The translations under genes and the position numbers were made by a program. This document shows, one piece after another, positions 17,353 to 57,828 of a stretch of DNA of 60,836 nucleotides. The notes under the pieces are model-generated. The model saw only the letters and a list, made by a program, of their open reading frames with translations. It ran no database searches and was not told where the DNA came from. Origin of the DNA: Catajapyx aquilonaris. Lineage: Eukaryota. Position 1 is the first letter of the stretch, and every line of letters starts with the position of its first letter. The stretch is taken from assembly GCA_000934665.2 (NCBI GenBank), contig JYFJ02002224.1, positions 1 to 60,836 of the forward strand. Direction: 5' to 3'.

Positions 17353-17589
17353 GCAACATACAACCGCACACATGCAAATAAGCTTAGGAAAATGATTATT
17401 TAATTACTTTTATAATTAACATGAGCTGTTTTCACGCATGCGCTGAGAATGTCATGTGCTGATATAGTGATAGTATGTTGATCACATTTGTTATGCAGTT
17501 ACCAGTCTCTTGCCATCCGGATTTTTGAAGCAGAAGCCATGAAAAATGTGATTGACGATGTGTAGTAATGTTAGTAATAAAATTTGTAA

Positions 17590-22071: not shown

Positions 22072-22314
22072 ATGTCGTTGGCGATCAAGAGTGAGTTGGA
22101 CGTAGAAGACGAGAGCATCGTGACGGAAGAGACTTGGAAGCTGGCACTGAAGGAAGAGACTCCGTCATGCTTTGATCCCGATTCGACTCTCATTCAGGAC
22201 ACCCTGAATGAAATTAAGGCCAAAGTGACAGAAGAGGAGATGATGGTTACTGTGCCATATGTTGCGGACAACGCGGAAGATCCGTAAGTCATTTATCATG
22301 AAGGAATCAGTAAG
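22072..22314 (+). pseudogene. Family-B ZNF first exon with premature stop; finger exon deleted
   Basis: MSLAIKSELDVEDE...DNAEDP* (TAA at 22285-22287 where paralogs have TTA); intron homology to copy B4 ends at 22500, where the mariner 3' end abuts. Confidence 0.8.
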
Positions 22315-23735: not shown

Positions 23736-24031
23736 TACAACGCAAGCATTTTAATATTTAATAGAAGCAGCATGACAGTAATGTATACCTTATGGGAGGC
23801 TTCGTGGGAACTGCCTAAAGGATCCTGTGCAAAATGAGTGGCACTTGCCACAGCGACCAGTTCCTCTTCCTCCACCGGCTCCACTTTGACATCCTCTTCT
23901 TCGTCGAGGCTGGTGAGGCCCTCGTAGAACTCTGTGGACGAGTGCTCCTCCTTCACTCTCAGCTTCCACTCCTCCTCCGTGGTGATGCTCCCTTCATCTT
24001 CCTCCTCTTCCTTTTTGATTTCCAACGACAT
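22511..24031 (-). CDS. Predicted chimeric gene: family-A acidic N-exon spliced to full mariner transposase (487 aa)
   Basis: Exon 24031-23789 (81 codons, phase 0), 57-nt intron gtatac...ttgtattag (23788-23732), then an open frame from 23731 through TIR/5'UTR (VRSISSRPGRGRPAGDTETGAAVVGC...) into the transposase; intact family-A promoter upstream. Confidence 0.6.
23738..23765 (-). mobile_element. Helitron 5'-end remnant
   Basis: TCTATTAAATATTAAAATGCTTGCGTTG matches the 5' terminus TCTATAATATTAAAATGCTTGCGTTG of the Helitron ending at 57483. Confidence 0.65.
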
Positions 24032-30337: not shown

Positions 30338-32444
30338 TTATCTGGGTCTGATCTTCATGGCTGCTCTTCTCAGAGAGTAACTCCATCCCTTCCAATGGTC
30401 CCAGTAGACACCTTGTTGAAATGGTGCGTCATGCTCTCCCTTGAGATAAAGTCCGTTCAGATTGGAATAGTGGCATCCAAAGTACCACCAGCCACCCTTG
30501 AACTCCTCTGCGCAGTTCAATCCAGTCGAAAGATCGCTGTCCCGGTCTTTTGTGGAGAAGGCCCGTCCATTGTGTTCGGCAAGAGAGTCCCCCGGGTCTC
30601 CTCCCGGTCCCTTCTCGTATCCCTCCACAGTGAGGTTGTACTTCTTCTCTTCATCTTGGACTCTAAAAGTGTGGTACAAGGCAACCCTCTCCTCCCCCTC
30701 CCAATCCTCCAGTTCCACCCGCAGCAGCATCGGAGTTGAAGGGTCACTGGTCAGTCCGTGGATGTTGTCCAGACCTATATAGGGTGAAAGTTTATACTAT
30801 TAGAAGATTTTGACAATAAAAAAAGTTAACCCAAACTTAAAAATTCTATGTTGATCCTTTTAAACCATTAAGGGCAGATATGGATATCTGGTGAATAACC
30901 TCACATCACCACTTTGAGTTCTGGTTCGTTGGGCCTGCCAATACATTCGTCTCCTGTGATGGTGACAATAAGTGATAAGAGTGCAACTCACCCAGCCAGA
31001 ACTCCCCTTCCAGATCACCAAACCCTCTCTTGTAGTCTGACCATCCACGGTTGAAGTCCACGTGAGGCTCGATGTCGTCTCTTCTTTGAATGACCGTCCA
31101 CCCTCCTCCATCCGACACCATATCACAGTACACCTGAGGACATGACGACGTTAGTTAGGCCTACGTAAATTCTAATAATTCCACTCAACGTATATAGCAC
31201 TCAATCATTCAGAGTAGTGACAGCGACATTATTTTTCCAGCGAGTCTCACCTCGACTTGTTTTCCAGATATGTTCACGGAATAAACTCCAGATGTACTGT
31301 GCCCTCGTTGCAGAAGGTCATGGCAACTATCTGCAGTAATTTCAGGGGGTGTAGGGTCTGAAAGAGAGTCTGAATCAGTCCTCAATCAATCGTCACAAAA
31401 CCGGAAATATTTCTGTTTATCAAACGTCTGCTGGAGCACCTCCATTAACATCTTTTCCCACTCTTTTAAAAGCATCCCTTACAAGCATTTTGCTCGGTTA
31501 TTGGCCACAGTTCCATTATCGCCGTGCCTATTTTCTGTATTTCTGTAGCTGCTGTATTGGTAAAAGACACAATTTCCCAACAGCTTTCCTTGCAAGGGTG
31601 TGAGTGTAACTACTATACTTTATAATAGCAAAAAATGTAAGTACAAAAATCCTATTAATATTTTCAACCAACGCACACAATACGTCGCATAAGCAATGAT
31701 CTATTTTCTTACCAGATGCGGTGGGGCTGACATCAGTTGCGTTGTTCACAATATCCGTCACCGATGAGGTTGTTGTGTCCACTGCATGGCTGGAATCAAT
31801 TGCAAGTATTTTGACATGTACTTAGGGGTCAACATTCAATTAAGCCACTGTTTTCCCGAACACACACAGCTTCATAATGTAACATGTTGGGAAAGGATGA
31901 TGGACTGTGATAGCAGCACAATATAATTATAATTTATACTATTCTACACTGTCTTAACTATTGGTCGCAATAAAAGCAGTTGGGTTGACACGGGGTTGAT
32001 GCCTTACCTCAATTTCACTTCTAATGATATTCTTTCTTTTAAGAATGCCAGCACTTCTTCTTTTAATGATTGCATTTCCTGTTTTGACGATTTCATTCCC
32101 TCTTCTAATGCTTCTTTTAGGGATGCCACTTCCCCCTTGATGTCTCCCACTTCTCGTGCTGCGGAATTTAAAAAGTAAGCGCATATTTAACGAACTTTAA
32201 CGAGACTTGATAAATATCCATCGGTCCCTTATTTATTACCTGATCGACCAAATCCATCCTCCATTACTCTGATCATTGTTTCCATGGCCAGTTCCAGTCG
32301 ATCTATCTGACATGTTTCCTTTGGATGGGTAGCACCGGTAGTATTTTCTGCTGCATCATTAGTCAGGGCCAGGGAATGATTGGCCCCTGACAGGAACAGA
32401 AGGGTGGTCACCAAATAGAGACCAAAACTGCTGGTGTGGGCCAT
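30338..32444 (-). CDS. Fibrinogen-related protein (FREP; tachylectin-5/ficolin-like) copy 1, 6 exons
   Basis: Exons 32444-32240 (signal peptide), 32158-32008 (coiled coil), 31789-31713, 31357-31251, 31133-30992, 30774-30338; motifs [42 protein letters not shown]. Confidence 0.9.
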
Positions 32445-34128
32445 CGTCTCTGAGGATGCTGCACTCGACTGAATCAGGACGACTCCTTTCTCCTTCAATC
32501 CCTTGGGGCGCACTGAATTAGTAGTGACATTAATTTTTGTGACCGAAGATAAAATATTTATGGTCAGAGGGCGATGCCTCATTATCAGCAGAGATGTCAG
32601 TGGGTTTATCGATATTATATCCCACTCCTTTTATCCTCAAATGGAACGTAAATCACATGTGTTATGGTTAGGAAATATCATGATCTGTGAACTTCCCTTG
32701 CCCACATTATGAGCATTGGTGTTGGTTGTCTGGAAGGGTCATGGGTCGCATGAGGGGGCCATTCCACTTTATATCTAGATAAGCCGTGGATGTTTACTTG
32801 ATGACCTTCACCAAAGTCGGGAGTTGTAAGCGGCAGTGATTCCTCTTTGATTTGATAAGGAGGGAAGTGGTAATGGCTTGGTGTAACTTTAATTCTTGGC
32901 GATTATGGCACAGTTCATCATTCATTATATCCGTCCAGTTTATTGGCATTTACCAGATATTTGCATTGAATAAAAACACTGGAAAAGGCAGCGAAATGCC
33001 AGATACTCGGAATGACAACTGGCAAATAACCCAACAGACTCTTTGGGAATAGGTTGATATAATTATTACACGCAAGGAGCATAATTATATTCAAGGTATA
33101 AATACCAGAAAATTCATGTGTGGGATAATGGCCAACAAAAGTGCAATTTTCCAGGAGAGCTAATATTGATGTTTGCACTCTCTTCAAAATCAAAGGGAAA
33201 GCTGGTTTTGCTCTAGTCCGTGTTGCCGTCTCGAGCATGATACCTGAACTTGGAGTACGTATATGCAAATAATTAAGCATATTCCTTGAAACAAAATGGA
33301 CCCTTTTTTCATCATGTGTACTATAGAACATATAGGTCACACGCTCATCAGATGATGCCATCTGAGCGAGAACATGATTCGCGAAAAAATGCGAATCATT
33401 CGACCTGTAACACTCCAATTTAGGCTCTATAATATGATCTATGTATGGAATGAAAATGTGATGCAGTTGAAAATATAGTGATTTTTATTGAAACCAGCAA
33501 AAAAATAATAGTACGGTTATGCAGGCATAATAATTATTATATGAAGACTTCCCATTTTGCTGTCACTGAAACTGTATCATTCCATTTCTGGAATTGCCAA
33601 CACTGGTTAGGTCTAGGGCGACAACTGGGGCGAAGGTGTGACAGGTATTTGCGTCAGTGAAAAGTCTGGTTTTTGTGCCTGCAGTACCGGAACAGAAGAC
33701 AAATCTAAGAATATTACATAGTGATAACATAACTGTACAGTGCGGGATAATTAGAGTTATCAGGATACCAGAGGACAGTAATACAGTATATGAGATTCTA
33801 CAATGCCTAATCAATGATTACCAACCAACAGACACGAAATTGGCCCGTGACGTAGCTCCAGTGACATAGGATTCAAGTTCAACCCTTTAAAAAACAGAGA
33901 AACACAATCACAATAGTAGGCCTAGTGTTAGATGATGATGCCCCAATTTGAGAGTAATGTGGTAAGTTTGTGTGATCAGTCACATTGGCATTGAATTGAA
34001 TTAATTAGATTGGCATTACTTAAAAAGAAACTACGATATACCCCACTAATATGCATACCTTATAATTATGGAAAAGGTGCAGGGAAGGGTGGTGAGTGTG
34101 ACAAGTGCAAAGAGTCATTACTAGTCGT

Positions 34129-36839
34129 TTAACTGGACCTGATCTTCATGGCTGCTCTTCTCAGAGAGTACTTTCCGCCCTTCCAGTGTTCCCAGTAGAC
34201 ACCTTGTTCGGATTGGCCGTGCTCTCCCTTGAGATAAACTCCGTTCAGATTGGAATAGAGGCAATATGTGTACTCCGATCCACTCCTGTACCACCAGCCA
34301 CCCTCGAAATGCTCTGCGCAGTTCTCTGCAGTGTTACCATCGTTGTCCCTGTCTTTTGTGGAGAAGGCCATGCCATTGTGATAGGCAAGAGAGTCCCCCG
34401 GGTCTCCTCCTCCCGGTCCCTTCTCGTACCCTCCCACACTGAGCTTGTACTTGTCCCCTTCTCCTCCGACCAGAAAAGTGCTGTACAAGGCGACCCTCTC
34501 CTCCCCCTCCCAATCCTCCAGGTCCACCCGGAGTCTCATTGGAGTGGAAGTGGTCAGTCTGTGGATGCTGTCGAGACCTATATAGAGTGAAAGTTTATCA
34601 ATATTATCATATTAGAATATTTTTAAAATTAAAAAGGGTTAACCCAAATTTAAAAATTCTATCTGTTATAGCAGCTCAGACCTTTTCCTTGACACAAAAA
34701 AAATGTAGGTAGTAATTTTCAATTTAAGAAAGAAAAGATATTATACTTGAAGGCGCCAAATACGTATACGTATCATATCGATCCTGTTGGAAGCAAAATT
34801 GGAAACAAGTTCAAACCGAGCCTTTTAAAACTAATTCGACCCCGCTCGTATATGTGAAATGGCAAAATGGAACTCATATGTCTTTAGACAAAATCAGTTG
34901 CAGCACGAAATGGTTTAATACTGATAAGTATGTCGTGTAGGCCTAATATAAAAGATGAGAAATTAATAATAACGGTCATCAGCCCTGAACTACTCCTTGA
35001 AGAGGAGCAACGATCACCAGTCAGCGATGTCAGTATATAGTGTTTTTGCGAAGGTACGTTTCCTCCGTAAAGTGTCAGTGAGGCAGATAACAGTCCAGTG
35101 GTGTGTAACCTTTGACCCTATGCCCCACCAGGTTCAACAGGAACTATAGGCACTACACCATCATGCTGTGTAATCGTGGCGGAATAATTTGTTTCAAAGG
35201 TTTGCATGTTGACCCTTTCAGACCATTATAGTGCAGATATCTGGTGAATAACCGCACGTCACCACTTTGAGTTGTGGTTCGTTAGGCCTGCCAATCCATT
35301 CGTCTGCTGCGACGGTGACAATAAGTGATAAGAGTGCAACTCACCCAGCCAGAACTCCCCTTCCAGATCACCAAACCCTCTCTTGTAATCTGCCCAATCT
35401 CGTTCGAAGTCCACGTGAGGCTCGATGTCGTCTCTTCTTTGAATAACCGTCCACTCTCCTCCATCCGACTCCATATCACAGTACACCTGAGGACATGACA
35501 GCATTAGTTAGGCCTACGTAAATTCTAATAATTCCACTCAACGTATATAGCATTCAATCATTCAGAGTAGTGACAGCGACATTATTTTTCCAGCGAGTCT
35601 CACCTCGACTTGTTTTCCAGAGATGTTCACGGAATAAACTCCAGATGTACTGTGGCCTCGTTGCAGAAGGTCATGGCAACTATCTCCAGTAATTTCAGGG
35701 GGTGTCGGGTCTGAAACAGAGTCTGAATCAGTCCTCAATCAATCGAGACGAAACCGGAAATCTTTCTGTTTTTTAAAAGTCTGCTATAGCACCTCCATTA
35801 ACATCTTTTCCCACTCTTTTAAAAGCATACCTTTCAACCAATTTGCTCGGTTATAGGCCACAGTTCCATTATCGCTCTGCCTATTTTCTGTATGTCTGTA
35901 ACTGCTGTATTGGTAAAAGACACAATTTCCTAACAGCTTTCCTTGCAAGGGTGTGAGTGTATAACTACTATACTTTATAATAGCAAATATAAGTACAAAA
36001 ATCCTATTAATAATTACAGCCAACGCACAGAATACGTCGCATAAGCAATGATCTATTTTCTTACCAGATTCAGTCGGGCAGACAGTTGCGTTGTTCATAA
36101 TGTCCGTAACCGATGAGGTGATTGTGTCCACTGCATGGCTGGAATGAATTGCAAGTATTTTGAAGAAATAATTAATTAGACACGTACTTAGGGGTCAACA
36201 TTCAATTAAGCCACTGTTTTCCCGAACACACACAGCTTCATAATCTAACATGTTGGGAAAGGATGATCGACTGTGATAGCAGCACAATATATTTTATTCT
36301 TCTACACTAGCTGTCTTAACTATACTGGTGGCAATAAAAGCAGTTGGGTTGACAAGGGGTTGCTCACAGGTTGCTCACTTATTAGGCCTACCTCAATTTC
36401 TCTTCTAATGATTGCATTCCCTCTTCTTTTAAGAATGCCAGCACTTCTTCTTTCAATGATTGCATTTCCTGTTTTGACGATTTCATTCCCTCTTCTAAGG
36501 CTTCTTTTAGGGATGCCACTTCCCCCTTGATGTCTCCCACTTCTCGTGCTGCGGAATTTAAAAAGTAAGCGCATATTTAACGAACTTTAACGAGACTTGA
36601 TAAATATCCATCGGTCCCTTATTATTACCTGATCGAGCAAATCCATCCTCCACAGCTCTCATCACAGATTGGATGGCCACTTCCAGTCTGTCTATCTGAC
36701 TGGGTTCCTTTGTGTGGACAGCACGGGGAATGTTTTCGGCGGCATCATTAGCCAGGGCCAGGGAATGATTGGCCCCTGACAGGAACAACAGAAGGGTGGC
36801 CAACAAATAGAGACCGAAACTGCTGATGTTGGCCATCAT
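34129..36839 (-). CDS. FREP copy 2, 6 exons
   Basis: Tandem paralog of copy 1 with the same exon layout; FBG motifs in the exon near 35345-35486 and in 34577-34129. Confidence 0.88.
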
Positions 36840-37942
36840 CTCGGAGGATGCTGCACTCGACTGGATCAGACGACTCCTTTCTCCTCAATCCCTTATTATT
36901 GGGGCGTACTGAATAAATAGTGACATTTGTGACCGAAGATAAAATATTTGTGGGGCAAAGGGCCCCATTATCAGCAGAGATGTCAGTGGGTTTATCCCAC
37001 TCCTTCCCCCCNNNNNNCCCGCTTCTTCCCCCCCCCCCCCTCAAACGGAACGTTGATCACGTGTGTTATGGTTAGGAAATATCATGATCTGTGAACTTCC
37101 CTTGCTTATGCGCATTGGCTGGCGTGGTTGTCTGGATGGGTCATGGTCATGGGTCCATATGATGGGGCCATTCACTATATATACAGGGTGTATCAGAGTC
37201 ACGGGTCAAGCGCGCGCGAGGGGCGCAATGTGATGCCGGATGATACTGATTTGCTTCAAATTGTATCAACTTATAGCAGATAAAAACTTGCAGACAAAAA
37301 GTGGAGCAGAATGGGAATTAACTTGGTAATATTAGACCACTTCACTCCAGCAACCAAAAAGAGCAGCAACAATCAAAGCAAGATCTTCCAACATACTGGT
37401 GGCAGATAGAGGGTTCACTTTTTCCTCATTTGGGACTGCCAGGGATGTGCACTGATCAAAAAAAAAATAAGAAATAATTGCCGAAAATCCCTGGCCATTA
37501 TTTTTAAGTAGCTGTTATTGCAGAGAATAGCTCTTTAATCCAATCACGTCATGTAGACGAGGGAACGAACCAGAGTGGGCCGTGAACTAAAGTGCGAACG
37601 CACCCCCAAATGCTTTCCAAGATGGCTGCCATATTCCCTCGTTATTATTTTCTGACCTGTCAAAGTCTTTTTTCCTGCTCATTATTATTTCCAGGGAATT
37701 ATTTTTGAGTTTTGAGCTGGAAGAAATAAAGTACAAAGGGTGAGTACAGCTGGAGGTAATGTGGGTACTGGTTTTGGTGGTGTAACGAGGGGAGAGAGTG
37801 TGAAGAAACGTGTGGAAATTGAGGAAAATTGGTTTCTTTGAAAATTAAAAAAAAAAGTGCAATTTTGCACGTGGCTCTTGCGAGAAAAATTAGTGCAGCA
37901 ATTAGCATGTGCATTATACTAATTGATGTGTTCGTCAGGATC

Positions 37943-38830
37943 ATGTCGTTGGCGATCAAGAGTGAGTTGGACGTAGAAGATGAGAGCATCGTGACGGAAG
38001 AGACTTGGAAGCTGGCACTGAAGGAAGAGACTCCTTCATGCTTTGATCCCGATTCGACTCTCATTCAAGATGCTCTGAATGAAATTAAGGCTGAAGAAAA
38101 GGAAGACGAGATGATGGTTACCGTGCCAGATGTTGCGGACAATGCGGAAGATCCCTTAGCCATTAATCATGAAGGAATCAGTAACGGCGCAGTAACGGGA
38201 GATACGAAGGGGAAGAGGAAATTTAACTGCCAATTTTGCAATAGGGAATTTGACAATTTGCGTAATATGAAACAACATGTAAGGATTCATACTGGAGAGA
38301 CGCCGTTTAAGTGTCCGGTTTGTGATAGAAAGTTTCGGTATAGAACTACTTTGTCGCGACACAAACTGACACACCCTGGAGAAACTACTTCTGAAATTTG
38401 TCAGGATAGGTTGATTGACTGTTGCGGTTTATCAGAATGCAAGGAGCTGGCTATAATGTGTGAGGAATTAAAATGCGAGGTTTGCAAGAGGAGGTTTCGT
38501 TGTCTTTCCCAACTGAAATCTCACAAGAGAAAACATGCTGGGGCGAAATCATTCAATTGCTCTGTATGCAATAATAAATATTCCCGCTCATATGGGCTGG
38601 CCCTACACTTACGGACTCACACTGGCGAAAAGCCATATAGTTGCCAACTTTGCAACAAAAAATTCACCAACTTATCTAATATGAAGAAACACATACAGAC
38701 ACATACAGGTGAGAAGCCATATTCATGCCAGATTTGCCTGAAACGGTTTGCCTCAAAGACGGATCTACAGAGGCACCTCCGAATGCACCGGAGTCAGAAG
38801 AGTTCTAGTCACCAACAGGACGCAATTTAG
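37943..38830 (+). CDS. C2H2 zinc-finger protein, family B copy 3 (295 aa, 6 canonical fingers, no internal coding intron)
   Basis: Single open frame from MSLAIKSE... through DPLAINHEGIS directly into fingers with TGEKP linkers. Confidence 0.9.
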   Translation: MSLAIKSELDVEDESIVTEETWKLALKEETPSCFDPDSTLIQDALNEIKAEEKEDEMMVTVPDVADNAEDPLAINHEGISNGAVTGDTKGKRKFNCQFCNREFDNLRNMKQHVRIHTGETPFKCPVCDRKFRYRTTLSRHKLTHPGETTSEICQDRLIDCCGLSECKELAIMCEELKCEVCKRRFRCLSQLKSHKRKHAGAKSFNCSVCNNKYSRSYGLALHLRTHTGEKPYSCQLCNKKFTNLSNMKKHIQTHTGEKPYSCQICLKRFASKTDLQRHLRMHRSQKSSSHQQDAI

Positions 38831-40051: not shown

Positions 40052-41197
40052 ATGTCGTTGGCAATCAAGAGTGAGATGGACTCGGGAGATGAGGGCATCG
40101 AGACAGAAGAGACATGGAAGCTGGCACTGAAGGAAGAGACTCCGTCATGCTTTGATCCCGATTCGACTCTCATTGAAGACGCCCTGAATGAAATTAAAGC
40201 CGAAGCGACAGAAGACGAGATGATGGTTACCATGTCAGATGTTGCGGACAATGCGGATGATCCCTTAGCCGCTACTCATGAAGGAATCAGTAAGGTACAC
40301 TAGTCACAAACACCATAAAATATAGCTGAAAAATACGGAGAGAATTTTCTTGGTATTAACATAACGAGGCTTCATAAATGTGTAATGATGTCTCGTATGT
40401 TTTCATCTGTAGCACTGAAATGAATGGTTTGCAATCATGTTCGCGTAGCGGAATTAAATAATAATTATGTGTACGCCTTTCAGACAGAAGAGGAGAAGCA
40501 GGCAGAAGGAAATGCGGCGGGGAAATGCACCAAGAGACACTTCCGAGGGAGGCCCTGCGGATGCCACCTTTGCATGGGAGATAGCGCAGAGAAGAAATTC
40601 AGTTGCCAATTTTGCAATAGGGAATTTAACAAATCTGCTAATATGAAACAACATCAAAGGATTCATACTGGAGAGAAACCATTTACGTGCCAGATTTGCG
40701 ATGCAAAGTTTTGTTTTGCCTCTAATTTGTCGCGACACAAACTTACACACTCTGGAGAAACAATTAGTTCTGAAATTTGTCAGGATAGGTTGACTGACTG
40801 TTGCGGTTTAGGAGAGTGCAAGAAGCTGCCTATAGGGAGTGAGGAATTAAAATGTGAGGTTTGCAAGAAGAGGTTTCGTTGTCTTTCCCAATTGAAATCT
40901 CACAAGAGAAAACATGCTGGGGTGAAATCATTTAATTGCTCCATATGCAATAAAAAATTTGCCCGTGCCTATGGGCTTACCAAACACTTACGAACTCACA
41001 CCGGCGAAAAGCCATATAGTTGCCAATTTTGTCACAAACAATTCTCCCAGTGGTCTAGTAGAACGAGGCACTTGCGGACACATACAGGGGAGAAGCCATA
41101 TTCATGCGAGGTTTGCCTAAAAAGGTATGCTGGGAAATCGGATCTAACTAGGCACCTCCAAACACGCCATGGCGAGAAGCGTTTTGTTTTCCACTAG
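40052..41197 (+). CDS. C2H2 zinc-finger protein, family B copy 4
   Basis: Exons 40052-40294 and 40484-41197, phase 0; 6 canonical fingers. Confidence 0.9.
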
Positions 41198-41627
41198 GCA
41201 ATTTAGAGAGGCCGATGATTAGCATGTTATATATAGTTAGCGATATGTGCATCTAAAATGAATTAAATGTTATGCTCCAATTCCAAGAGTCATTGATGCA
41301 TTTAAATGTTGGAAATAAAATAATATTGTCATCAGGCATAATTATGACCACATGATTATGTACTATTTGCAAGCATTTTATCCTTGGTTGGAGGAAGGAA
41401 AGTACAAAGAGTCATCAGGCCATATTTCCACACTGTCTACGTAAAAAAAATCACAATTGTTTGCTTCTCTTGCACAACATGACACTGACGTGACAACCAT
41501 GGCACTTCCGAGTTGAAGTGTTAGGTTTCCATGACTTCAGCGGCTCGTTGACATTGTTGTCTCCTGCCTAATAAGTCTGGCCCTGCCTCACCTTTCCCAG
41601 CTTGTCCTGCCCTAACTTATTAGGACC

Positions 41628-42265
41628 ATGGAGGTGAAGATAAAGGAAGAAGTGATCGAAGGGAAGGAAGATGACAGCGTTACTGTAGAGGAGCCCTGGA
41701 ATTTGGTAATGAAGGAAGAAATCGCATCATGTTACGTTGATGAGTCCGCCACTGATGATGTGGCTGTTAATAAGTCAGAAGAGGGTGAACAGATGGTCAT
41801 TGCTTCAAATATCCCCGATGATGTGGACGACCCGCTGGCATGTACTAACGAAGGAAGCAACCAGGTAAGTTATATGCAACAATGGGCACAACAATCACTT
41901 TTGATGATTAACAAGCTATGCACTTAAACTAAAATGGATTTTTAATGTTTCAGGGAGAACATGAGAAGACGGCTGATAATGCGAAGAGAAAGTGTTTGGA
42001 GCAATCAGATGGTCTGACATACCGTGCTGCACACACCGCCGGGGAAAGGCCGTCCGTCTGCCAAATTTGCAACATGACGTTCACCAGGTCGTTCACTCTG
42101 AAAACGCATATGATGATACATACCGGGGAGAAGCCTTACACGTGCCAAGTTTGCCAAAAAAGGTTCCGCCGTAAATCACACTTGGAAAGACACTCGAAAG
42201 TGCACAGTTACGCTGCTTGGTTGCTAGATATGAAGCAAAGGCATTTAGAGCAGCAGCGTAATTGA
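41628..42265 (+). CDS. Two-finger C2H2 protein, family C copy 2
   Basis: Exons 41628-41864 and 41954-42265, phase 0. Confidence 0.85.
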
Positions 42266-43262
42266 GCGACGTACAAACCGCACACATGCAAATAATAAGC
42301 TACGGAAAATAATTTCTTTTTTTATTTAATTACTTTTATAATTAACCTGAGCTGTTTTCACGCACGCGCTGAGAATATGTTGATAGTGATAGTTGATCTC
42401 ATTTGTCACAGTTTTGAGGTAGTTCGCCTCATTTTTGAAGCAGGAGACGCATTGAAATGTGATTGGTGATTTTTGTAGTATAATATTTTAGTACAGCAAT
42501 TAAAAACATACCGGTACTTTTGGGAAATTTGATGCATAAAATACATGTAAAATTGAAATGTGATTAGTGCAATGTTAGCACGGTAATAAAATACTTAATT
42601 TTTTGTTTGTAAAATTTGATGCGTTAATTACTTGTTTACATGTGTGTGGACTTCAAAAGTGCAACACTTTTGTTGGATTCGCATAGGTCTCGTATTGTAC
42701 TCTTCACATACTAGTTCAATTAGTAATCAATTGTTAATTGGTAAATTGCAAATTAAGAAGTTAACACAATATTATTAACAACCAATTATTAAAATAATTG
42801 AACGTTATTTTGTAGCAGTTACTTTGCTAAGTAGCAGTGATTGTCATTTAGCAGCGATTGTGTTATTAAGCGGCGATGCGATATTTCGCCAAAAGGCCCG
42901 TTGGTCTGAGTGTGAACGCACCCACAAGATGGCTTCCTTATCAAGGCCACTCCAGCTTCTCTCTCCTTCTGTTTGAGGCTCATTTTCCGGCCTTTCCTCA
43001 TCAGTGGCGGTCAGTCTGGGCCGTGCGATGGAAGCAGCAGATGTTGAAGAGTAAGTTGAGCTCGGTTGGAGTCGAAGGGAGCCCAAAATGAGGGCAGGAT
43101 CTGTGGTCATATGTAGTGTGGCAGCATAAAAATAATGCGGAAGTCACTAGTTCAAATTCACTGTAAATATTGGCAGAAATGTTGGCGATTAATTGCAAAT
43201 GGTAATTAGTAGCATGGCATCATCATAGACCACATGTTGAATTTTTCAGGACCGAATCGGTG

Positions 43263-44931
43263 ATGATCAAGCTGGAGATGATGGACGGAATGGAGGGAAA
43301 TACTGCGGACGACATTGAGGATATGACGGAAGAGGCTCATGTTTGCTGTAATGATGAGTCGGCCGTTGACGTAAAGGACATTAAGATGGAAGCAATCGAG
43401 GAGCAGGCGTTCCTCGCTGAGCCTACCGGCAAAGAGGATGATCCGTTAGCCGTAACTCATAAAACTCCCGATAAGGTACATCAACAACATGCGGGGATAA
43501 AGCATGCAGTACTTACATTATCTTCTGTCTTTAGATTAACCTGAGGTCACAGAAGGATCAAACCACAGTGTGCAAAGTTTCAAAGCAGAATCAACAGAGG
43601 AGTCGTGCTATGGGCCGTTATCGAAAGACATGCGGGGAAGACCTGAGGCGGAAAGTGATTGGTAAATATTCCCATTGCATGTAATTTACTGCCGTTTTTC
43701 TAACGAATGGTTATGAACGTATAGAGCTAAGAAGAACGGGGCTGTCAGTCCGAGAGGTTGCGGCACGACTGCTTGTTAGCAAATCGACTGTCAGTACTAT
43801 TTATTTGCGGTTTGCCAACAGTTGCGCTGAGAACGAGGAGGAAGCTTTTAAGGAAGCTCTTACACCTAGGTTCAAAGGAAGGTAAATTGCAGTCAATGTG
43901 CACATTTCATGTCTACAAGCGTTACATGCCACAGGTGCGGACGTCCTCGCATGACCACTACTTTCGAGGATGAACAAATTGCGAAGATTAGCCAGCTCGG
44001 TATCCCCACATGTGTGTCTGCACCTGTGATATGGAAGGACATGGACTTGCAAGGCATTGTGTCCGTGGAGACGATCCGCAACAGGCTTCAGGAAGCCAGG
44101 CTGCGTTTACGCAAAGTCGATCCGAAGCCCACGTTGACATACTTAAGTCGACAGGAACGGCTGTACTTTTGTGGTAATTATTGGTAATATTTATCGACCG
44201 AGTGTGTTGCATGCAGCAAGTAATTCGTATGGCAATTTTTTCTAGAACAATACCAATCATGGACTACTTCCGATTGGGAATCAGTGGTGTTTATGGATGA
44301 AGCCATGGTAGAAGTCGGCTGGCGGGGGAAGCGGCAAGGGTGGGAGCTTCCGAAGCACAGAAATGACCCCCGGAATCTCAGGCTGGTCCAGAGAAGTGGA
44401 AGACTTTCTGTGGGTCTCCTCTCGTGGATGTCCGTCACCTCCGTAGGGCCTGTAATACCTGTCGGAGGACAGATGAATGCTGCGGACTACGTGACCATAC
44501 TTGACGAGGACGTGCTGCCTTGGCTGGACGAGGAGAATCCCGATGGATGCTACTACATGGTTCATATCCACTCACCGATCCAGACAGCAGATGTCGTTAC
44601 CGAATGGGTAATATTCTAGTGCACAATCGCAGTTTCTGGTACTTATCCTGGCATACGCTTGCAGATGGAGCTAAACCCTAGCCTGATGTTCATCGAGTGG
44701 CCTTCCCAGGCTAGCGACCTCAATCCGATGGCGTTCTTCTGGAAGATGCTTAAAGAGAGGCTGCTGGGAGAGAGATTTTACAACAAGGCCGCCCTCTGGA
44801 TGGCGATTCAGAGAGAGTGGACGAACCTCCAACACGATTTCTGCGCGCGCAAAAACCTGGTGGCCAGCATGCCCCGACGGATCAAAGAAATTCTGAGGAA
44901 AAAAGGAGGCTGGAGCCACACACACTGTTAA
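43263..44931 (+). CDS. Domesticated Tc1-like transposase fused to a ZNF-type acidic N-exon (454 aa, 6 coding exons)
   Basis: Exons 43263-43475, 43535-43661, 43725-43881, 43935-44173, 44246-44607, 44665-44931; introns 59, 63, 53, 72, 57 nt, all GT-AG; total 1365 nt with no internal stop. HTH GLSVREVAARLLVSKSTV, GRPR, SVETIRNRL, W..VVFMDE, WPSQASDLNPM, LVASMPRR..KKGGW. Confidence 0.85.
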
Positions 44932-45524
44932 ATTATTTTCACTGCCTTTTCTTTCGCTTTGAAAAAAACCTTTTGGTGAGTTTAAGAAATATACAGGAGG
45001 AGATGAAAGAATAATTTATTGGTGCCTCTTTATTTCAGTTTTCATGGAGAAGTGTACATTACATGATTGTTTAATGACTGTTATTAGTTGAGCCCATTCC
45101 TACAAAGCCATGTAATTTATAACTAATTAACGTGGTACAGTACAATGCATTCTGTGGGTAAATCTAATTACCTAAATGACTAGAGAGCGGGGATAAAGCG
45201 ACAACCCTACATTGTACTTCATGTTCCAGTTGGTCGTGACCACTTTTCGCCCCCATCAAATCAAATAACACTGCTTATACATCTCCCGACTTTGATGCAG
45301 GTCATAATGTAAACATCCCTGACTTATCTGGGAATAAAAATATACATGATTGATGTTCCCTTTTAGGGGAAAGGCACTGACATCTCGGCTGATAATGGGG
45401 CCTCGCCCTCTGGGTTTAAATATTTTATCTGGGGTCACCAATGTCACTATTTATTCAGTACTCCCCACATGATTGAGGAGAAAGGAGTCGTCTGATTCAG
45501 TCGAGTGCAGCATCCCCCGAGACG

Positions 45525-45732
45525 ATGGCCAACATCACCAGCAGTTTTGGTCTCTCTTTGTTGGCCACCCTTCTGTTCCTGTCAGGGGTCACTCATTCCC
45601 TGGCCATGGCAAGTAATGGAACCGAAAATATTCCTCATGCTTCCCATCCAAAGGAACCCAGTCAGATAGACCGACTGGAACTGGCCATACAAACAATGAT
45701 GAGAGGAATGGAGGATGGATTAGCTCGAACAG
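45525..45732 (+). pseudogene. Orphan FREP promoter + exon 1 duplicate
   Basis: About 45130-45790 closely matches the FREP copy 5 promoter/exon 1 without the Helitron; homology stops at about 45795. Confidence 0.7.
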
Positions 45733-45795
45733 GTAATGCGGGAGCGATGCTGGATATGAATATGAATGTGTAGGTCTGTCTCGCTGAAGTCCCAT

Positions 45796-46560
45796 TCATT
45801 TGATTGATTGATTTATTGATTTATTCATTAATTTATTTATTCATTTTTCTCCCATAGATATACACGACCTTGTCAGTCCACACCTGACATCTTCCATTTG
45901 CCGTGCCGCCCTGAAGATGAGGGCCAGCGAATATTGGGCCTATGAACTACATCCGAAGGACTGGTTCCTCACAGTGGAAAAAACAAAAAAACCAAATTCG
46001 CCAAGGTTCCTAGCTTATATCCATGTAAAACAATATGAAAACAATGATTTGAAGGCAGAAGGTGTGGGTGGCATTGAAATAAATTATTACAAAATGTTAC
46101 CTGCTCTTCTAAAAGCTTTGGAGAGCACCTATTCCCACATGCGTTCCGCAGGTGTTGATTTCAATGAAGAACAGCACTACTGTTTAAAAAAATATTGTGT
46201 CTTCCATAAAATTATTTTTCCTGGAGACCCATTTATTATTATCTGCAATATTCATCTCTTCCAAAATCTGAAGAACCATTCGTTGGAACCCTTCTTTTGG
46301 AATAATGAATATTCTGTGGATTTTTGAATCCTATACGGAGCAGGCGGTGGGGCATGATACCACGCCTGAAACAATGGTGGTGTAACAAATACTTCTGATC
46401 ATTTATTGCTTCCATCACATACCTGGAGTACTCTCCCAAGCCCTGACCAGGTACTGCGGAGCCTCCATCCTGGCCGGAGGTAGACGGTGGTAGACAAGAG
46501 ACAAGCATCCTCCTCGCAACATTTCTTAGGGTATATGCAATGAGAAAATGACCTCTTTTC
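45796..46560 (-). mobile_element. Unassigned insertion, possibly a decayed retroelement 3' end
   Basis: Interrupts FREP-homologous sequence on both sides and ends in an (AATAA/AATC)n-like tail on the minus strand; no recognisable protein motif. Confidence 0.3.
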
Positions 46561-46833
46561 GCCACCATCAAATCAAATAACACTGCTTGATATCTCCCCA
46601 CTTTGATGAAGGTCATAATGTAAACATCCCCGACTTATCTGGGAATAAAAATATACATGATTGATGTTCCCTTTTAGGGGAAAGGCACTGACAACTCGGC
46701 TGATAATAGGGGCTCGCCCTCTGCCCACAAATGTTTTATCTGTGGTCACCAATGTCACTATTTAAGCAGCACGCCCCACAGGATTGAGGAGAAAGGAGTC
46801 GTCTTGATTCAGTCGAGTGCAGCATCCTCCGAG

Positions 46834-48748
<1,915 letters not shown>

Positions 48749-50774: not shown

Positions 50775-52796
50775 TCAATGGTGCATGGAACGTGACGTGC
50801 TGCAAATTTCGGCAAAGAATGCTAGTAAACCCAGCCCGCAAGAGAATATTAATAGGAAATAGAAGGCACTGCTCATCTGGGTGAAATTGAGGGCCATCAG
50901 TCTCTTGAGGAGGAAGTCCTTCTTCCGGGCATCACCTATTCCCATGGCCAGAGAGGAATACTCGAAATTCACACGGAACTTCTCGTGCAAGCCTGACTCT
51001 CTGACGTACTTGCTCATCCTGGATATGATCGGAGAGATTAGGCTGTGCTTCTCGGTCAGGAGAGTACCGTAAACTACCACGTTGTTCTCTTTCGCAAATT
51101 TTGTCTGCAGGTTGCCGGTCTTGTCGGCAAACTGGTAGCTTCCTGCTACGAGAAATTCCTTTGGGCTGATGCAGCAGTGATCGGAGTTGATGGCCTCGAG
51201 CACACACGTGTTGAGGTCCACGTGATCTGTCAGGTTACTCGCCACTGAAGAGAAGTACTCCAGTCCCAGCAGAGCACTGATGATGTATGGTTTAAAGAAT
51301 CCAATCGTCCCCCAACTCCACTTGGGCCATTCCCGGTGCTCCCTGTAGGTCTTCGGGAGGTCCTCCATCAAGGGAGAGGCCAGAAAGCCGAAGTAGAGGG
51401 CCTCGTACCCACAGATGATGACCAGGGAGAAGGCCCACCAGAAGGAGATGAATATCCGGGGTGGTTGGGTGGAGGGGACCAGGTTCGGGTTCTCTTCCAT
51501 CAGGGTGGAGGAGAGGTACCTCAGGGAGTACAGGAGGAGGCGGGGGAAGGACCAGGGGCGGCCAGGGAAGGGGGGGAGGGGACTCCACTTCAAGAGGAGG
51601 GCGAGGACTGCGCTGCCAAAGACTACGGAGACCATCACCATCGCCCACATGTCCGGAGTGTACGGTCGGAGCATCGCGTTCCAGGTGTATCTCACTCGAG
51701 GGGCCCTGGTTATGAATGTCACTGTGCCAAACGCATGGGGAAAACTCATGTCGACCACCAGGGACAGGCGATCTTTAACCATTGTTAATCCAAACACTGC
51801 TTTTCTGCGGAGGATGACTCCTGTTGCTCCGGTGTAGTTTCCGTCTGGAAGTGGCATATCCAGTGGCACCCCGTCTTCCCCTCCGAGGGATTCCATGACC
51901 CAGTCGTAATTCATGGCCTGGCTGATGGGCAGGAGGTCCATTATCTCTGAGAACATGGGCAAGCTGTTTTCAAAGAAATACTGAAGCTCGTTTTTACTCA
52001 GGTCCAACACGAATGATCCGTTGAGCAATCGATTGTGCAAATTCCGGGAATAATCCGGGAAGAGATCCAGACCTGCAGGGATGACTTGTCCTCTTCCGGG
52101 GTCGAACCATCCCCTCGTGACCACCCCTGGATGACCCCCCTTGCAAAAGTGGCAGTTGGAGAGCAGCCTGGCCATCCCTGGATGACCTGCCTGGACCCCT
52201 GAGGAGGTGTCCACCCCCGCCAGGAAGAGGAACCTCTCCGTGACCCCGTGCAGCATGACCTCCTCCAGCCTCCAGCCTCCCCCCTCGCTGACCCACACCA
52301 CGAACTTGTCCCTTCCCGTCTGGATGGAGACCAGTCTAGCCACCTGCTCCACCAGTGACCTCAGGTCATGGTGGTGGTCGGATGATGATGGTGACCCGAA
52401 GATCAAGAGCAGGTACACCGCGCACTTGTGCTCCACCGCACCAGGTCTGTGCAACCAAGAGAACCAGTACTCGAACTGACCTGAGTTGACCTGGTGTGAC
52501 CCCCTCTTCTGCCGGGTCACGGTGGTGGTGGTGACGGGCAGCACTGGGGTCACCCCCACCCGGTGTATCCTCCTGATGAACCCGGATAATTCAGGCCCGT
52601 TGAACCTTCTTCCTTGGTCCGTGGCAGGCACCAAAAGGCAAGAAGGGTACATCCGGCTGACCAAATGGACACACTCAGTCACCCGAAACAACTCGCTGTC
52701 CTCCTCCTCTCGAAGGTCAAGGGTCACCTTCCCGTCCACAGCCACCACCAGAAGAAGGAGAGAGACGAGCACTGATGACAACGAGTGAAGCCCCAT
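50775..52796 (-). CDS. Divergent ionotropic receptor (variant iGluR chemoreceptor), intronless, 673 aa
   Basis: Signal peptide; S1-like GNYTGATG..VDMSFP; M1 after LRPYTPDMW; RIFISFWWAFSLVIICGYEALYFGFL (M2/M3 motif); S2 ESGL; final TM FYFLLIFSCGLGLLAFFAEI. Confidence 0.9.
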   Translation of the reverse strand: MGLHSLSSVLVSLLLLVVAVDGKVTLDLREEEDSELFRVTECVHLVSRMYPSCLLVPATDQGRRFNGPELSGFIRRIHRVGVTPVLPVTTTTVTRQKRGSHQVNSGQFEYWFSWLHRPGAVEHKCAVYLLLIFGSPSSSDHHHDLRSLVEQVARLVSIQTGRDKFVVWVSEGGGWRLEEVMLHGVTERFLFLAGVDTSSGVQAGHPGMARLLSNCHFCKGGHPGVVTRGWFDPGRGQVIPAGLDLFPDYSRNLHNRLLNGSFVLDLSKNELQYFFENSLPMFSEIMDLLPISQAMNYDWVMESLGGEDGVPLDMPLPDGNYTGATGVILRRKAVFGLTMVKDRLSLVVDMSFPHAFGTVTFITRAPRVRYTWNAMLRPYTPDMWAMVMVSVVFGSAVLALLLKWSPLPPFPGRPWSFPRLLLYSLRYLSSTLMEENPNLVPSTQPPRIFISFWWAFSLVIICGYEALYFGFLASPLMEDLPKTYREHREWPKWSWGTIGFFKPYIISALLGLEYFSSVASNLTDHVDLNTCVLEAINSDHCCISPKEFLVAGSYQFADKTGNLQTKFAKENNVVVYGTLLTEKHSLISPIISRMSKYVRESGLHEKFRVNFEYSSLAMGIGDARKKDFLLKRLMALNFTQMSSAFYFLLIFSCGLGLLAFFAEICSTSRSMHH

Positions 52797-54999
52797 GGCG
52801 AACTAGTCCTGTCTTGGTTTCAACCAGACCTTTTTATGTCCTCTGTCAAACATACTGGCAGTCAAAAATTAATTCCGGTCTAATTAGCTTCCAGTCGTAA
52901 CCACGGGTGAGATAAAGCCATTACTGCGTTCCTAATGAACGCATCTTTGATCCGAGGTGTGACAAATCTCTTCCCAATAACGCTGAAGGATTTTCGCAAA
53001 CTTATTTTCTCTCAAAATGGAGAAAATTGCTCTTTCCTCTCTCCCCGTATAATATCATGTCGTATGTTAATAATAAAAAGAGCAATGATTGCTCCAAACC
53101 ATCGCAACATTTCGGTGCAAGTAAACCAATTCTGAGCGATTTGCAGCACGTATGAAGTGGCTAATTTGTGTATACAGGAAGGGTTGCTCAAAGTTATTGA
53201 CATCAAGCTGTCATTTCGCCATGTGATTTTCCTTTTGAGAATATGGACATCAATGTGAACCCCACTAATTTAGATCAACGAATCCATAACTATATACAGT
53301 GGACTAATGCAGTAGGATACTGACCCCGCTTGCCTCATCCAGAGATTTGTGCGTTTATTAATAATTACATATTATATTTTAAGCAAGGAGTCACACGTGG
53401 ACTTGGAGGGCCACGTGCTCTTCGCCGGTGTTGTGATTCACCCGACATGTGAAATATTGATCAGACCGATATTGATCTGACAGGCATGCAAAGCGTGGGA
53501 TGGCTTGAATCTGCCCTCAGAAGTGAAGAAATATGAGCACGTGCGCAAGACTTCAAAATGCTAATTAAAATGCTACGATGATGGATCTGGATCAGTCTTC
53601 TTTTAAAACCTGCGTGGAAATTATGCATAAGTCACAGTTTTTACCTCCCCCCTCCCCTTTGCGGACAGAAACGTACAATATCTTACCTCCCCACCCCCCC
53701 TAAAAATTGCGGGGACATGGCCTTCTTGACCCCCCCNCCACACTGAAGTGTTATTTCCAATATATTTGTGTTTTTATTTTTTGATATCGACACACAAATT
53801 CCTTTTTTCAGAGGCATTATGGTATATTTGATGGGTCTGATTAAAAAAAGTTGAGGTTTATTGTCCGCGCGTACAACAGACTTCTACCGCCCCACCCCCC
53901 TGTACGGACAAAAGCGGACAAAGTGCTCATCATTAATTTGGGGGTTGTGTGTTCGCAGCATGACTGCCCGCCTTGTGGCGGCGTAGATGTGGGTGTTGCG
54001 TGATGTGGGTGTGGCAAAGCCACAATAACGTTCGTTGGCCTGCGGCGCCACAAGAACGACCGCAAATGTTGCGGATTCAAAACTCATAATAAGCGCCTAG
54101 CTCCGCATTAACTCAAATTATCAAGCACTGGCGACGTTCCGTGCCTGGCAGGGCCACAAGACGGTCAGTACTGGTGCGGTCACTCCAACGCCTCACAGAT
54201 AACACCAACACAATCATTCATCATCCCTCATGGCACGTTTCCACGGAGAATCACCTCACGCAACAGTGGGAGTGAACAGTCTCAACAAAGGAACATTGTT
54301 CGTTTTCATTTTATTAATTGTTATTACTTAATAGAAACACACAAAAAATAGCAATAAACCTTAGTGTGTGACTGTCGAGTCACAAGTTTTCACTCGAAAG
54401 AGATTAAAACGTGACCACTGTCCTAATATGCTAAAATTGCGACAAGGTCCATTATGTAAAGAAAAAAATCATAAAACTAATTGCTATTTTCAGCGTTTCC
54501 TTCATCAGGGAGAGTGAATCAAACGGGATCTTGTCCATCCCCAAAGGATGCTGCGGTGACATGCGAAGGATTATTTTCAGACATTTTCCCCTCCCTATAG
54601 CCAATTTGATATTTGCCACATGTATAACGTGGTACAGTACAATGCATTCTGTGGGTCAATCTAATAACCTAAATGACTAGAGAGCGGGGATGAAGGGACA
54701 ATAACCCTACACTAGGAAAACCCTCGCTCCGCTCGTCTTTTCCTAGGGCGCAGGCCTAGAAAACCACTTGCTTCGCTCGCTCTTTTCTAGGCCTGCGGCC
54801 TGCGGTGTAGTCCATGTTCTTAATGATGCTCATCCAACAATTATCCGCGTCATACTCCCCTCCCCCCTCCCTCCCTCTCCTTATATTAATCGGGTTAGTG
54901 CACCGCCCTAATTGGGCATCTGGCACGGTACCTTTATTTGCTTAAGGTGTACAAGCTTTTACACGTGGTCATTTTCCGTAACGCCCGGGTACCGCGAGC

Positions 55000-56370: not shown

Positions 56371-57828
56371 TCGGTACATAGGTACTGTACACTGTACTCC
56401 CGATTATTATCCGGGCTAATGACTGCACGGGTGTTGCCAGATAATAGGGAAACACGGACAATCGGAAAATGGTCCTGGAAAGGGAGCTATTCACAGGTTG
56501 TTGATGTACTACGCTGTACAAAGAGCATGCTGCGTGGTTAATCAAAAAAATAGAACTTACCTTAGAATTTTACTTTCCCTTCTAGAAAAAGTATGGTATA
56601 TTTTTTCGTTGGCGAGACATATTGATATTGATATTGGGTGGAATTTTCGTACCACTGCTAACTTTGCAGTACCAGTGTTGGCACTGGTGCTGCTAAGTTA
56701 GCAGTAGGCCTATACACTATCTAGCAGTGGGATAAATATCAGACACATTTTTTCGGACTTAAATGTTTATATTATGGCGATGCACGGATAATCGTGAGTA
56801 CAGTGTAATTGGATTTTTATTGTTGGTGGTTGCCAATTGTGCCAACTCAATAACCTTCACTAACTGTATAAACAAACCTGCCAGTTGGCACCACTGGATG
56901 ACCAAGAATATATGCATTCCTGGCTATATGTTGGAACGTGGGTAGATTTGCAACCCGATTACTTACGTTCGATTCTACGTCCGAAAGAAGTGCCTCGAAG
57001 ACAGTGTATATACTGTAGGCCGCCTACTTCCCATCTGTGAAAGCACCGCGCATGGGTAGGCCTATGCGCGAGCAGTCCGATCAGTAGGCCTAATGCTAAT
57101 AAGGTTAGAATTTCGAACTTACATTTCTTCGCCAGTGCATACGGCCATTTTTCAATAACCAGCTATACCCGCGGCGAAGGGGGGACAGGTCCGGCAGGGG
57201 TGACGATGACCGAGGCGGAAGAGACGGAAAAAAGCGACCTTCTCCCAAGGAGGTCAGTAGGCAACTGGACGTGTTCCACCCCCACTGCGCATGCTCGGAA
57301 CGGGGGCCAATCGGAGGCGTAATGGTAACAATGCGTCATGGATACGACGCAGCAACAATGGACGGGGGCCAATAGGAAGAGGTGGCGGCAACAATACGGG
57401 GGCGGACCAATCAGAGGGCTTATACACACAATACACCAATCAGAGGGCTTATACATGCAACGCAAGCATTTTAATATTATAGATTGTACTTCATGTTCCA
57501 GTTGGTAATCAGTGAGAAAATGACAACTTTTCACCCCCCCNCCCCCCCCCCCCCCCATCAAATCAAATAACACTGCTTATACATATCCCGACTTTGATGA
57601 AGGTCATAATGTAAACATCCCTGACTTATCTGGAAATAAAAACATACATGATTGATGCTCCCTTTTAGGGGAAAGGGACTGACATCTCTGCTGATAATAA
57701 TGGGGCCATGCCCTCTGGCCTTAAATATTTTATCTGGGGTCACCAATGTCACTATTTAAGCAGTATACGCCCAGAGGATTGAGGAGAAAGGAGTCGTCTT
57801 GATCCAGTCGAGTGCAGCATCCCCCGAG

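Follow-up and report, generated by a model that had tools for sequence, protein, structure and literature searches.

A probable host-transposase fusion gene of Catajapyx aquilonaris, in which a zinc-finger-type first exon heads a catalytically degenerate Tc1-like transposase

The capture of a transposase by a host gene is a well-documented event among tetrapods. In the primate gene SETMAR, a SET domain is joined to the Hsmar1 mariner transposase, which is contained in a single exon and carries a one-residue catalytic change. Host-transposase fusions arise mostly by splicing; in the bat, KRAB exons of ZNF112 and the mariner transposase of Mlmar1 make up the fusion KRABINER, which binds to mariner ends and is a regulator of transcription (Cosby et al., bioRxiv 10.1101/2020.05.07.082677). 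For invertebrates, the example treated in depth in the literature consulted is the F-box A2 family of Caenorhabditis, in which F-box genes captured a Tc1/mariner helix-turn-helix (PMC12062965). Here we describe a locus on contig JYFJ02002224.1 of Catajapyx aquilonaris (assembly GCA_000934665.2; 60,836 nucleotides, referred to below as the window), where a first exon of the type found in neighboring zinc-finger genes stands ahead of a Tc1-type transposase reading frame (43263-44931, plus strand). We consider this locus, with a probability of roughly 0.6, to be a host-transposase fusion gene of the KRABINER and SETMAR kind. There is good support for describing it as a domesticated Tc1-type transposase with a degenerate catalytic site and a zinc-finger-family exon at its head, the junction between exons 1 and 2 excepted. 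It appears to be a real and fairly old gene, but one born by a known route, the capture of a transposase; what sets it apart is an undescribed N-terminal tail, the retention of the whole dead catalytic core, and four introns in the transposase-derived sequence. A literature search on domesticated transposases brought up no such gene, as judged from titles and the opening lines of abstracts.

With KRABINER, the locus shares one or more N-terminal exons of zinc-finger origin, a splice acceptor just upstream of an open reading frame (ORF) of the Tc1/mariner superfamily, a full-length transposase, and a position within a zinc-finger cluster. It differs in several respects: in place of a KRAB domain, the host part is a tail that is acidic, apparently disordered and found in the local zinc-finger families only; the transposase is not of the mariner type but Tc1-like, its spacing being D-35-E; there are four transposase-internal introns and two catalytic residues are lost; and no zinc-finger exon is left at the fusion locus, while DNA binding and regulation would be ascribed to it by analogy. 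Because no zinc-finger exon is left, the gene cannot be read as an alternative isoform made by a living zinc-finger gene. As in SETMAR, host exons would be spliced to a transposase of the same superfamily whose DNA-binding part is retained and whose catalysis is impaired; unlike in SETMAR, where the host part is an enzyme domain, two of the three catalytic residues are lost and four internal introns are present. The paired helix-turn-helix, the GRPR linker, the RNase H-like core and the C-terminal motif occur in the same collinear order as in active Tc1-like transposases such as Sleeping Beauty (5cr4), but the gene departs from the active enzymes in reading D,I,A for D,D,E, in the absence of inverted repeats, in its host promoter and N-terminal exon, and in its introns. 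The F-box A2 family resembles the locus in being an invertebrate capture of the Tc1/mariner DNA-binding part; in that family only the first helix-turn-helix was captured, it is placed N-terminal to the host domains, and the family is large (PMC12062965), whereas here a whole transposase lies C-terminal to a short host tail.

Rebuilt from its coordinates, the gene comprises six coding exons that form one frame of 454 codons plus stop, separated by coding introns of 59, 63, 53, 72 and 57 nucleotides (nt) that all run from GT to AG (5/5). The rebuilt structure agrees with an earlier note on this DNA, which had proposed six exons, five GT-AG introns and a single 454-residue frame. The splice acceptor of intron 1 (43533-43534) is located 75 nt ahead of the old transposase start codon (ATG 43610), and the donor context of this intron, AAG/GTACA (the slash marks the splice site), is the same as that in the zinc-finger gene at 40052. 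In the covered part of the 5' exon, the first ATG (43028) stays in frame once the 5' intron is spliced out; it may add 12 residues and bring the full product to 466 amino acids (aa). The elements of the transcription unit are listed below together with the contigs of one public run, X1, that cover them; UTR denotes an untranslated region.

42910-42933, plus strand: two promoter motifs, GTGTGAACGCA followed by CAAGATGGC, a short distance ahead of 42940, where the observed transcript begins.
42940-43050 (at least), plus strand: exon 0, the 5' exon; X1 contig record 1 joins 43050 to 43250.
43051-43249, plus strand: 5'UTR intron, 199 nt, GT..AG; absent from the X1 contig; its aligned position is that of the 5'UTR intron of family-B zinc-finger genes.
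43250-43475, plus strand: exon 1, with the ATG at 43263; acidic N-terminal module of 71 residues, of the zinc-finger-gene type, ending in phase 0.
43476-43534, plus strand: intron 1, 59 nt, GT..AG; the putative fusion-forming junction, joined in frame; GT and AG are retained in both truncated paralogues.
43535-43661, plus strand: exon 2; 25 codons of former transposon leader, the probable ancestral transposase ATG (43610) and the start of the first helix-turn-helix.
43662-43724, plus strand: intron 2, 63 nt; exactly absent from X1 contig record 2.
43725-43881, plus strand: exon 3; first helix-turn-helix, acidic insertion and start of the GRPR linker; generic helix-turn-helix Pfam matches.
43882-43934, plus strand: intron 3, 53 nt; exactly absent from X1 contig record 2.
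43935-44173, plus strand: exon 4; GRPR linker and second helix-turn-helix; HTH_Tnp_Tc3_2 at E 1.7e-6, and profile alignment.
44174-44245, plus strand: intron 4, 72 nt, GT..AG; read-through meets a stop codon and excision restores collinearity with the profile.
44246-44607, plus strand: exon 5; N-terminal half of the catalytic core, in which D263 is retained and I353 takes the position of the second Asp.
44608-44664, plus strand: intron 5, 57 nt; exactly absent from X1 contig record 3.
44665-44975, plus strand: exon 6; remaining catalytic core with A389 at the Glu position, conserved C-terminal end, stop codon (44929-44931) and start of the 3'UTR.
44976-45038, plus strand: probable 3'UTR intron, 63 nt, GT..AG, beginning 44 nt after the stop codon; indicated by the loose end of X1 record 4 and by splice sites.
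45039-45350, plus strand: last exon (3'UTR); the contig extends to 45271, and an AATAAA lies at 45333.

Four X1 contigs lie on the locus, two at ≥99% and two at 95-99% identity; all contigs that match at ≥90% (4/4) fit the fusion locus at 95-100%, and none fits it at 90-95%. They omit the segments 43051-43249, 43662-43724, 43882-43934 and 44608-44664, each of which is bounded by GT and AG, and because its contigs are spliced we read run X1 as RNA-derived. Of the five coding junctions that the earlier note had proposed to check with RNA-seq reads, those of introns 2, 3 and 5 are thereby seen in the transcript, while introns 1 and 4 lie outside contig coverage; intron 4 is validated by a different route, since a profile of related transposases is collinear across its junction (see below). 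Record 4 covers 45038-45271, and its 12-letter 5' loose end matches only 44963-44974 in the window, which points to the 3'UTR intron listed above. The exons that flank the fusion junction are both transcribed and spliced, and it is very probable that the junction between exons 1 and 2 is itself in use. Within exon 1 an X1 contig differs from the window at two places (G>T at 43295, G>A at 43297), read as Glu to Asp and Gly to Glu replacements in the acidic tail. Over the 770 nt of covered transposase-derived exons, 0 and 2 differences from X1 were counted, too few to gauge constraint.

The transposase part was identified by comparing exon 5 (120 aa) with 1.84 billion representative proteins using phmmer. 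This gave 252 matches at E ≤ 1e-3, 11 of them at ≤ 1e-10 and the best at 1.8e-15; identity was 33-37% among the ten top-scoring matches, none of which came near 50%. When 12 top relatives were scanned with Pfam, most carried both HTH_Tnp_Tc3_2 and DDE_3 above the respective cut-offs, and 11 of the 12 carried HTH_Tnp_Tc3_2 above cut-off or DDE_3 at E 1e-6 or better. Judged by these matches, the nearest relatives of the gene are true Tc1-like transposases. All 35 phmmer matches of 320-370 aa were combined into a transposase profile of 336 positions, to which the spliced product aligns with 273.7 bits (E 1e-85), positions 5-334 of the profile corresponding to residues 104-450. The alignment is collinear over all four transposase-internal junctions and is interrupted by one acidic insertion, which separates the first helix-turn-helix from the GRPR linker. 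Identity to the 35 relatives, counted in the aligned columns, is 21-31%. The bipartite, paired-like helix-turn-helix region with its GRPR-type linker, which the earlier note had described as intact, is therefore present in an end-to-end alignment that begins at residue 104. In the linker, G168 and R169 occupy the G and R columns (25/35 relatives alike), while P170 and R171 fall in variable columns (14/35 and 15/35). The RNase H-like catalytic core is homologous along its whole length, as seen by phmmer, by the profile and by the closest solved structure found by sequence, the Sleeping Beauty catalytic domain 5cr4 (E 0.0077), where WSDE aligns with FMDE and QHDNDP with VHIHSP. For exon 4, a search of the PDB gave a chance-level match only (E 0.49).

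The active site is degenerate. At the first catalytic column the gene keeps D263, within VFMDE, where 33 of 35 relatives have D; at the second, where D is equally frequent (33/35), it has I353, within HIHSP; and at the third, E in 34 of 35 relatives, it has A389, within ASDLNPMA. The gene thus reads D,I,A where the catalytic triad is D,D,E. Thirty-five residues separate the last two of these positions; in the relatives the distance is 34 (24 proteins), 35 (7), 36 (3) or 69 (1). These column counts bear out what the earlier note had read from the letters, namely one kept and two substituted motifs at a 35-residue spacing. In the relatives, 30 columns show conservation of 80% or more. The gene retains 19 of them, and seven of the 11 lost ones (353, 358, 382, 383, 388, 389 and 390) lie in the two active-site motifs; retained are residues of the fold type (W, G, Y, L) as well as the C-terminal motif. 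Since the losses cluster in the active-site motifs, the pattern is as expected if catalysis is dispensable but the fold is needed.

The 5' end of the gene resembles that of the zinc-finger genes around it. The motif pair GTG[TC]GAACGC[AG] then CAAGATGGC occurs at five places on the plus strand of the window:

37592/37618 and 39702/39729, plus strand: motif pairs of intact family-B zinc-finger genes.
15787/15822 and 21723/21756, plus strand: motif pairs of decayed family-B 5' modules.
42910/42925, plus strand: motif pair of the fusion gene.

The promoter motifs that had been attributed to family B are found here as well as at four family-B sites; as one exact joined pattern they have a single occurrence in the window. 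Aligned with MAFFT, the five 5' regions fall into register at the motifs, the donor of the 5'UTR exon, the acceptor (TTTTCAGGA), the start region and the donor of exon 1 (AAG/GTACA), and the indels of exon 1 relative to the zinc-finger exons are multiples of three. Exon 1 is acidic (21 D+E versus 6 K+R in 71 residues) and was compared with nine zinc-finger first exons from both local families:

8360-8593, 10591-10818, 14914-15123, 20641-20871, 23789-24031, 26556-26789 and 29609-29848, minus strand: zinc-finger first exons.
37943-38185 and 40052-40294, plus strand: zinc-finger first exons.

With the first exon at 40052 it shares 32% identity over 73 residues, nearly the whole exon (BLASTP E 7e-5), and the local alignment score of 75 was reached by 0/2000 shuffles (32 +/- 6); for the gene at 37943 the score was 53, which 8/2000 shuffles reached. 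Comparison of exon 1 with a profile of the nine zinc-finger first exons by hhalign gave E 8.6e-5. These three tests uphold the earlier proposal that exon 1 shares the design of its zinc-finger neighbors. In an alignment of all ten sequences, ten columns are invariant (the start Met, [I]K.E, one Glu, K.E and DPL) and a His is nearly so; at both [IV]KxE motifs and at DPL, the fusion exon retains every column in which the nine zinc-finger first exons all agree, while it lacks their tryptophan and phenylalanine. In sequence, the [IV]KxE motifs conform to the SUMO-acceptor consensus, and the PLD[IV]S of family A resembles the CtBP-binding consensus. No KRAB domain was found by Pfam in the fusion exon 1 or in the nine zinc-finger first exons. 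The zinc-finger N-terminus had no informative look-alike in the ESM Atlas (best score 0.82), and a word-based protein search with its residues 1-82 returned nothing. As a separate observation, both local C2H2 zinc-finger families begin with this common acidic exon of about 80 residues, which has 20 invariant columns across the nine exons and follows the pattern MSL.IK.E, EE.WKL, [IV]K.E, DPL then H.

The segment 42400-45900 was searched for inverted repeats (seeds of 8, minimum 12 nt). No terminal inverted repeats bracket 43535-44931, in agreement with the earlier impression; 19 short, weak inverted-repeat pairs were found, none of them at both transposase ends. A CAGTG at about 43568 and its complement just past the stop codon had been entertained as remnants of transposon ends and were rejected, as no extended complementarity was visible by eye and no such inverted-repeat pair was recovered. 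Because both the catalytic triad and the inverted repeats were looked for and neither was found, the notion of an active Tc1 element was likewise discarded. Searches by tblastn and blastn revealed only two further pieces of the gene in the window:

11314-11618, plus strand: truncated paralogue 1; 3' end of exon 1, intron 1, exon 2 and start of intron 2; frameshift; 74% identity.
17766-18058, plus strand: truncated paralogue 2; same two break points; stop codons; 74% identity.

Both fragments include the first 30 nt of intron 2, share their break points, retain the GT and AG of intron 1 and are disabled within about 190 coding bases. The block 16677-17567 upstream of the second matches 41594-42480, the spacer upstream of the fusion gene, at 85.5%. 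Given the common break points and this larger duplicated block, the fragments are segmental duplicates of a unit of zinc-finger gene plus fusion gene and not transposed copies.

The paralogue fragments are 26% diverged from the gene at the nucleotide level, and since both of them share the arrangement of exon 1, intron 1 and exon 2, this arrangement predates that divergence. When random substitutions were simulated in the 454-codon frame, it stayed open in 313/5000 trials at 5%, in 15/5000 at 10% and in 0/5000 at 13% divergence; the simulation ignores indels and assumes that a neutral gene would take an equal share of the divergence. Neutral drift over half of the 26% would therefore have closed the frame, and its openness despite long divergence is indirect evidence that points to purifying selection. 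By its distance both from full-length relatives (≤31% identity) and from its own paralogues (26%), the gene appears old or fairly old, as the earlier note had supposed.

Taken together, these data can be accommodated in the following scheme. A Tc1-like element would have landed behind the first coding exon of a local family-B zinc-finger gene, after which the donor of the zinc-finger exon would have become spliced to the acceptor that precedes the ancestral transposase ATG by 75 nt. In this way the promoter of the zinc-finger gene, its 5'UTR exon and its acidic exon would have come to drive and head a full-length transposase. Later, the ends of the element would have been lost, the active site would have changed from D,D,E to D,I,A, and four short introns would have appeared in the transposase-derived part, while the DNA-binding region with its paired helix-turn-helix was retained, as were the GRPR linker and the residues that define the core fold. 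Such a protein would no longer be able to cut DNA and might act as a sequence-specific DNA-binding protein that brings its two [IV]KxE motifs and its DPLxxxH motif to sites derived from the ends of the ancestral transposon, as in KRABINER; the tethering of a regulatory tail to such sites is suggested by this analogy. From the view that an old host gene uses a dead transposase to deliver a regulatory domain, much has held up, namely that the gene is transcribed, spliced, devoid of transposon ends, D,I,A in its active site, and old; the regulatory domain is not among these points, there being no Pfam family for exon 1 and its predicted structure being non-globular. A more far-reaching version is tentative, with the odds clearly against it: the gene could be an invertebrate counterpart of the KRAB-transposase fusions, in which the disordered tail of a lineage-restricted zinc-finger family, with two SUMO-consensus-like [IV]KxE motifs and a DPLxxxH motif whose counterpart in the sister family A is PLD[IV]S, serves as a repression module on a dead Tc1 transposase, the host silences or rewires the carriers of those transposon ends, and the four introns were gained after capture.

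Several points weigh against a fusion gene of this kind. The X1 contigs leave 43380-43579, with intron 1 and the fusion junction, and 44127-44391, with intron 4, uncovered, and the kind of run that X1 represents is not on record. A leader of 25 codons would be open by chance in about 3 of 10 cases (61/64 to the 25th power). Pfam, which was run exon by exon, detected HTH_Tnp_Tc3_2 on exon 4 (E 1.7e-6) at 28.6 bits, below the cut-off of 31.5, and DDE_3 on exon 6 (E 1.5e-3) at 18.8 bits, below the cut-off of 28.6; exon 3 gave generic helix-turn-helix matches (e.g., HTH_38 at 2.3e-4), and exons 1, 2 and 5 gave none (exon 1 at E ≤ 1). The two domains that had been anticipated from HMMER were thus matched, both at sub-threshold scores, and exon 5 was silent. 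Neither an orthologue nor a close relative was seen in the library of 1.84 billion representatives (≤31% identity to the nearest full-length relatives), and word-based protein searches with exons 5 and 6 against longer proteins returned nothing. At the 5' side, blastn (E 1e-3) shows no homology between the 5' modules of the fusion gene and of the zinc-finger genes; because it missed the similarity, the MAFFT alignment is a guided one and not independent proof, and the proposed kinship of the 5' modules depends on layout, motifs and an acidic peptide of 32% identity. The hhalign probability is 60% and concerns residues 36-69 only. Exon 1 matches no Pfam family at E ≤ 1, the nine zinc-finger first exons match none of relevance, and exon 1 is predicted to be non-globular (pLDDT 62, pTM 0.14). 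For want of a Pfam match and of an ESM Atlas look-alike, and in view of this prediction, exon 1 is best described as a tail with short motifs and not as a domain; to call it a regulatory domain is a guess.

The gap in transcript coverage at intron 1 leaves room for a reading without any fusion, in which exons 0 and 1 are the 5' leftover of a zinc-finger gene that lost its finger exon, and a separate transposase gene of about 358 aa is translated from 43610. The X1 contigs do not span the join of 43475 with 43535, the former transposase ATG persists, and decayed zinc-finger 5' modules devoid of finger exons do exist at 15787-16313 and 21723-22310. Nevertheless, we regard two separate units as unlikely. 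Donor and acceptor are canonical, the donor being the AAG/GTACA used at 40052; exon 1 lies just 59 nt from exon 2 and in frame with it; exons 0 and 1 are transcribed and spliced to each other with no other plus-strand exon after them; and retention of intron 1 would close the frame at 43545, leaving the transposase ORF as a second cistron. Exon 1 also keeps the invariant motif columns and has indels in multiples of three, whereas the decayed modules do not (a stop codon in the 21723 module, a deletion in the 15787 module). Still less probable is an ordinary, intron-bearing, multicopy Tc1-like transposon, mobile or recently dead, which happens to sit behind a zinc-finger promoter and is transcribed by read-through. 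A species-specific family could be invisible in the protein libraries, from which this species is evidently missing (even its zinc-finger N-terminus matches nothing), and two more pieces of the 5' part are present in the window. Yet these pieces are segmental duplicates, with their common break points and the block 41594-42480/16677-17567; inverted repeats are absent; the catalytic triad has lost two residues while the frame is open through four introns; four X1 contigs fit the locus at 95-100% and none at 90-95%; and the 5' end of the transcript is a zinc-finger module and not a transposon end.

A further reading accepts the gene and gives it another job than that of a transcription factor: it could inhibit its parent transposons by titrating their ends or poisoning multimers, or its RNase H-like core could serve as a protein-binding scaffold. 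The entire catalytic core and the C-terminal end are retained, whereas many captured transposases keep the DNA-binding part only, and the N-terminal tail is predicted to have no fold. The promoter and the tail of zinc-finger type suggest instead the regulatory setting of the neighboring transcription factors. The data do not separate these functions, and on balance we think such another job improbable.

If the locus is a fusion gene as we propose, the birth route known from KRABINER, from zinc-finger 5' exons to an acceptor ahead of a transposase ORF, would have been taken in an invertebrate genome with a different, undescribed host module. It would also provide a handle on this tail, which matches no known family and is carried in the window by zinc-finger first exons of which at least 9 look intact and 2 are decayed. 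The short spliceosomal introns lie within sequence of an intronless-type origin, and should related active elements exist, the timing of intron gain becomes testable; if the introns were indeed gained after capture, the four would constitute datable intron gains.

The zinc-finger cluster holds a second transposase behind a zinc-finger first exon, at 22511-23731 on the minus strand. This 406-codon frame is of the mariner type (Transposase_1 1.6e-15, HTH_48 6e-7), has a GC content of 0.52 versus about 0.42, and lies head-on just behind the decayed family-B 5' module at 21723-22310 (plus strand), whose exon 1 contains a stop codon. In the zinc-finger gene at 37943-38830 (plus strand), the first exon is continuous with the finger array in one open frame, while in its neighbor at 40052-41197 (plus strand), which is 83% identical to it, the first exon is followed by a GT donor and stop codons; one member of this recently duplicated pair seems to have undergone an intron loss or a deletion. 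A THAP-domain frame (12818-13558, minus strand; E 5e-12), with a direct repeat of about 40 residues in its C-terminal half, adjoins the first paralogue fragment; THAP is a transposase-derived DNA-binding domain.

Directly downstream of the fusion gene lies a tandem array of fibrinogen-related genes. Four exons of fibrinogen C domains are located in the window at 30338-30796 (minus), 34129-34611 (minus), 48242-48748 (plus) and 59335-59802 (plus), with Fibrinogen_C at 2.9e-41 for the one that was scanned. Repeated 5' segments of 83-92% identity connect 45237-45792 with 46549-47052 and 57552-58099 and, on the opposite strand, with 32235-32602 and 36624-36988. A single frame of 675 codons at 50775-52802 (minus strand) scores 26.4 bits with Lig_chan, below the cut-off of 30.8, and may represent a divergent, ionotropic-receptor-like gene without introns.

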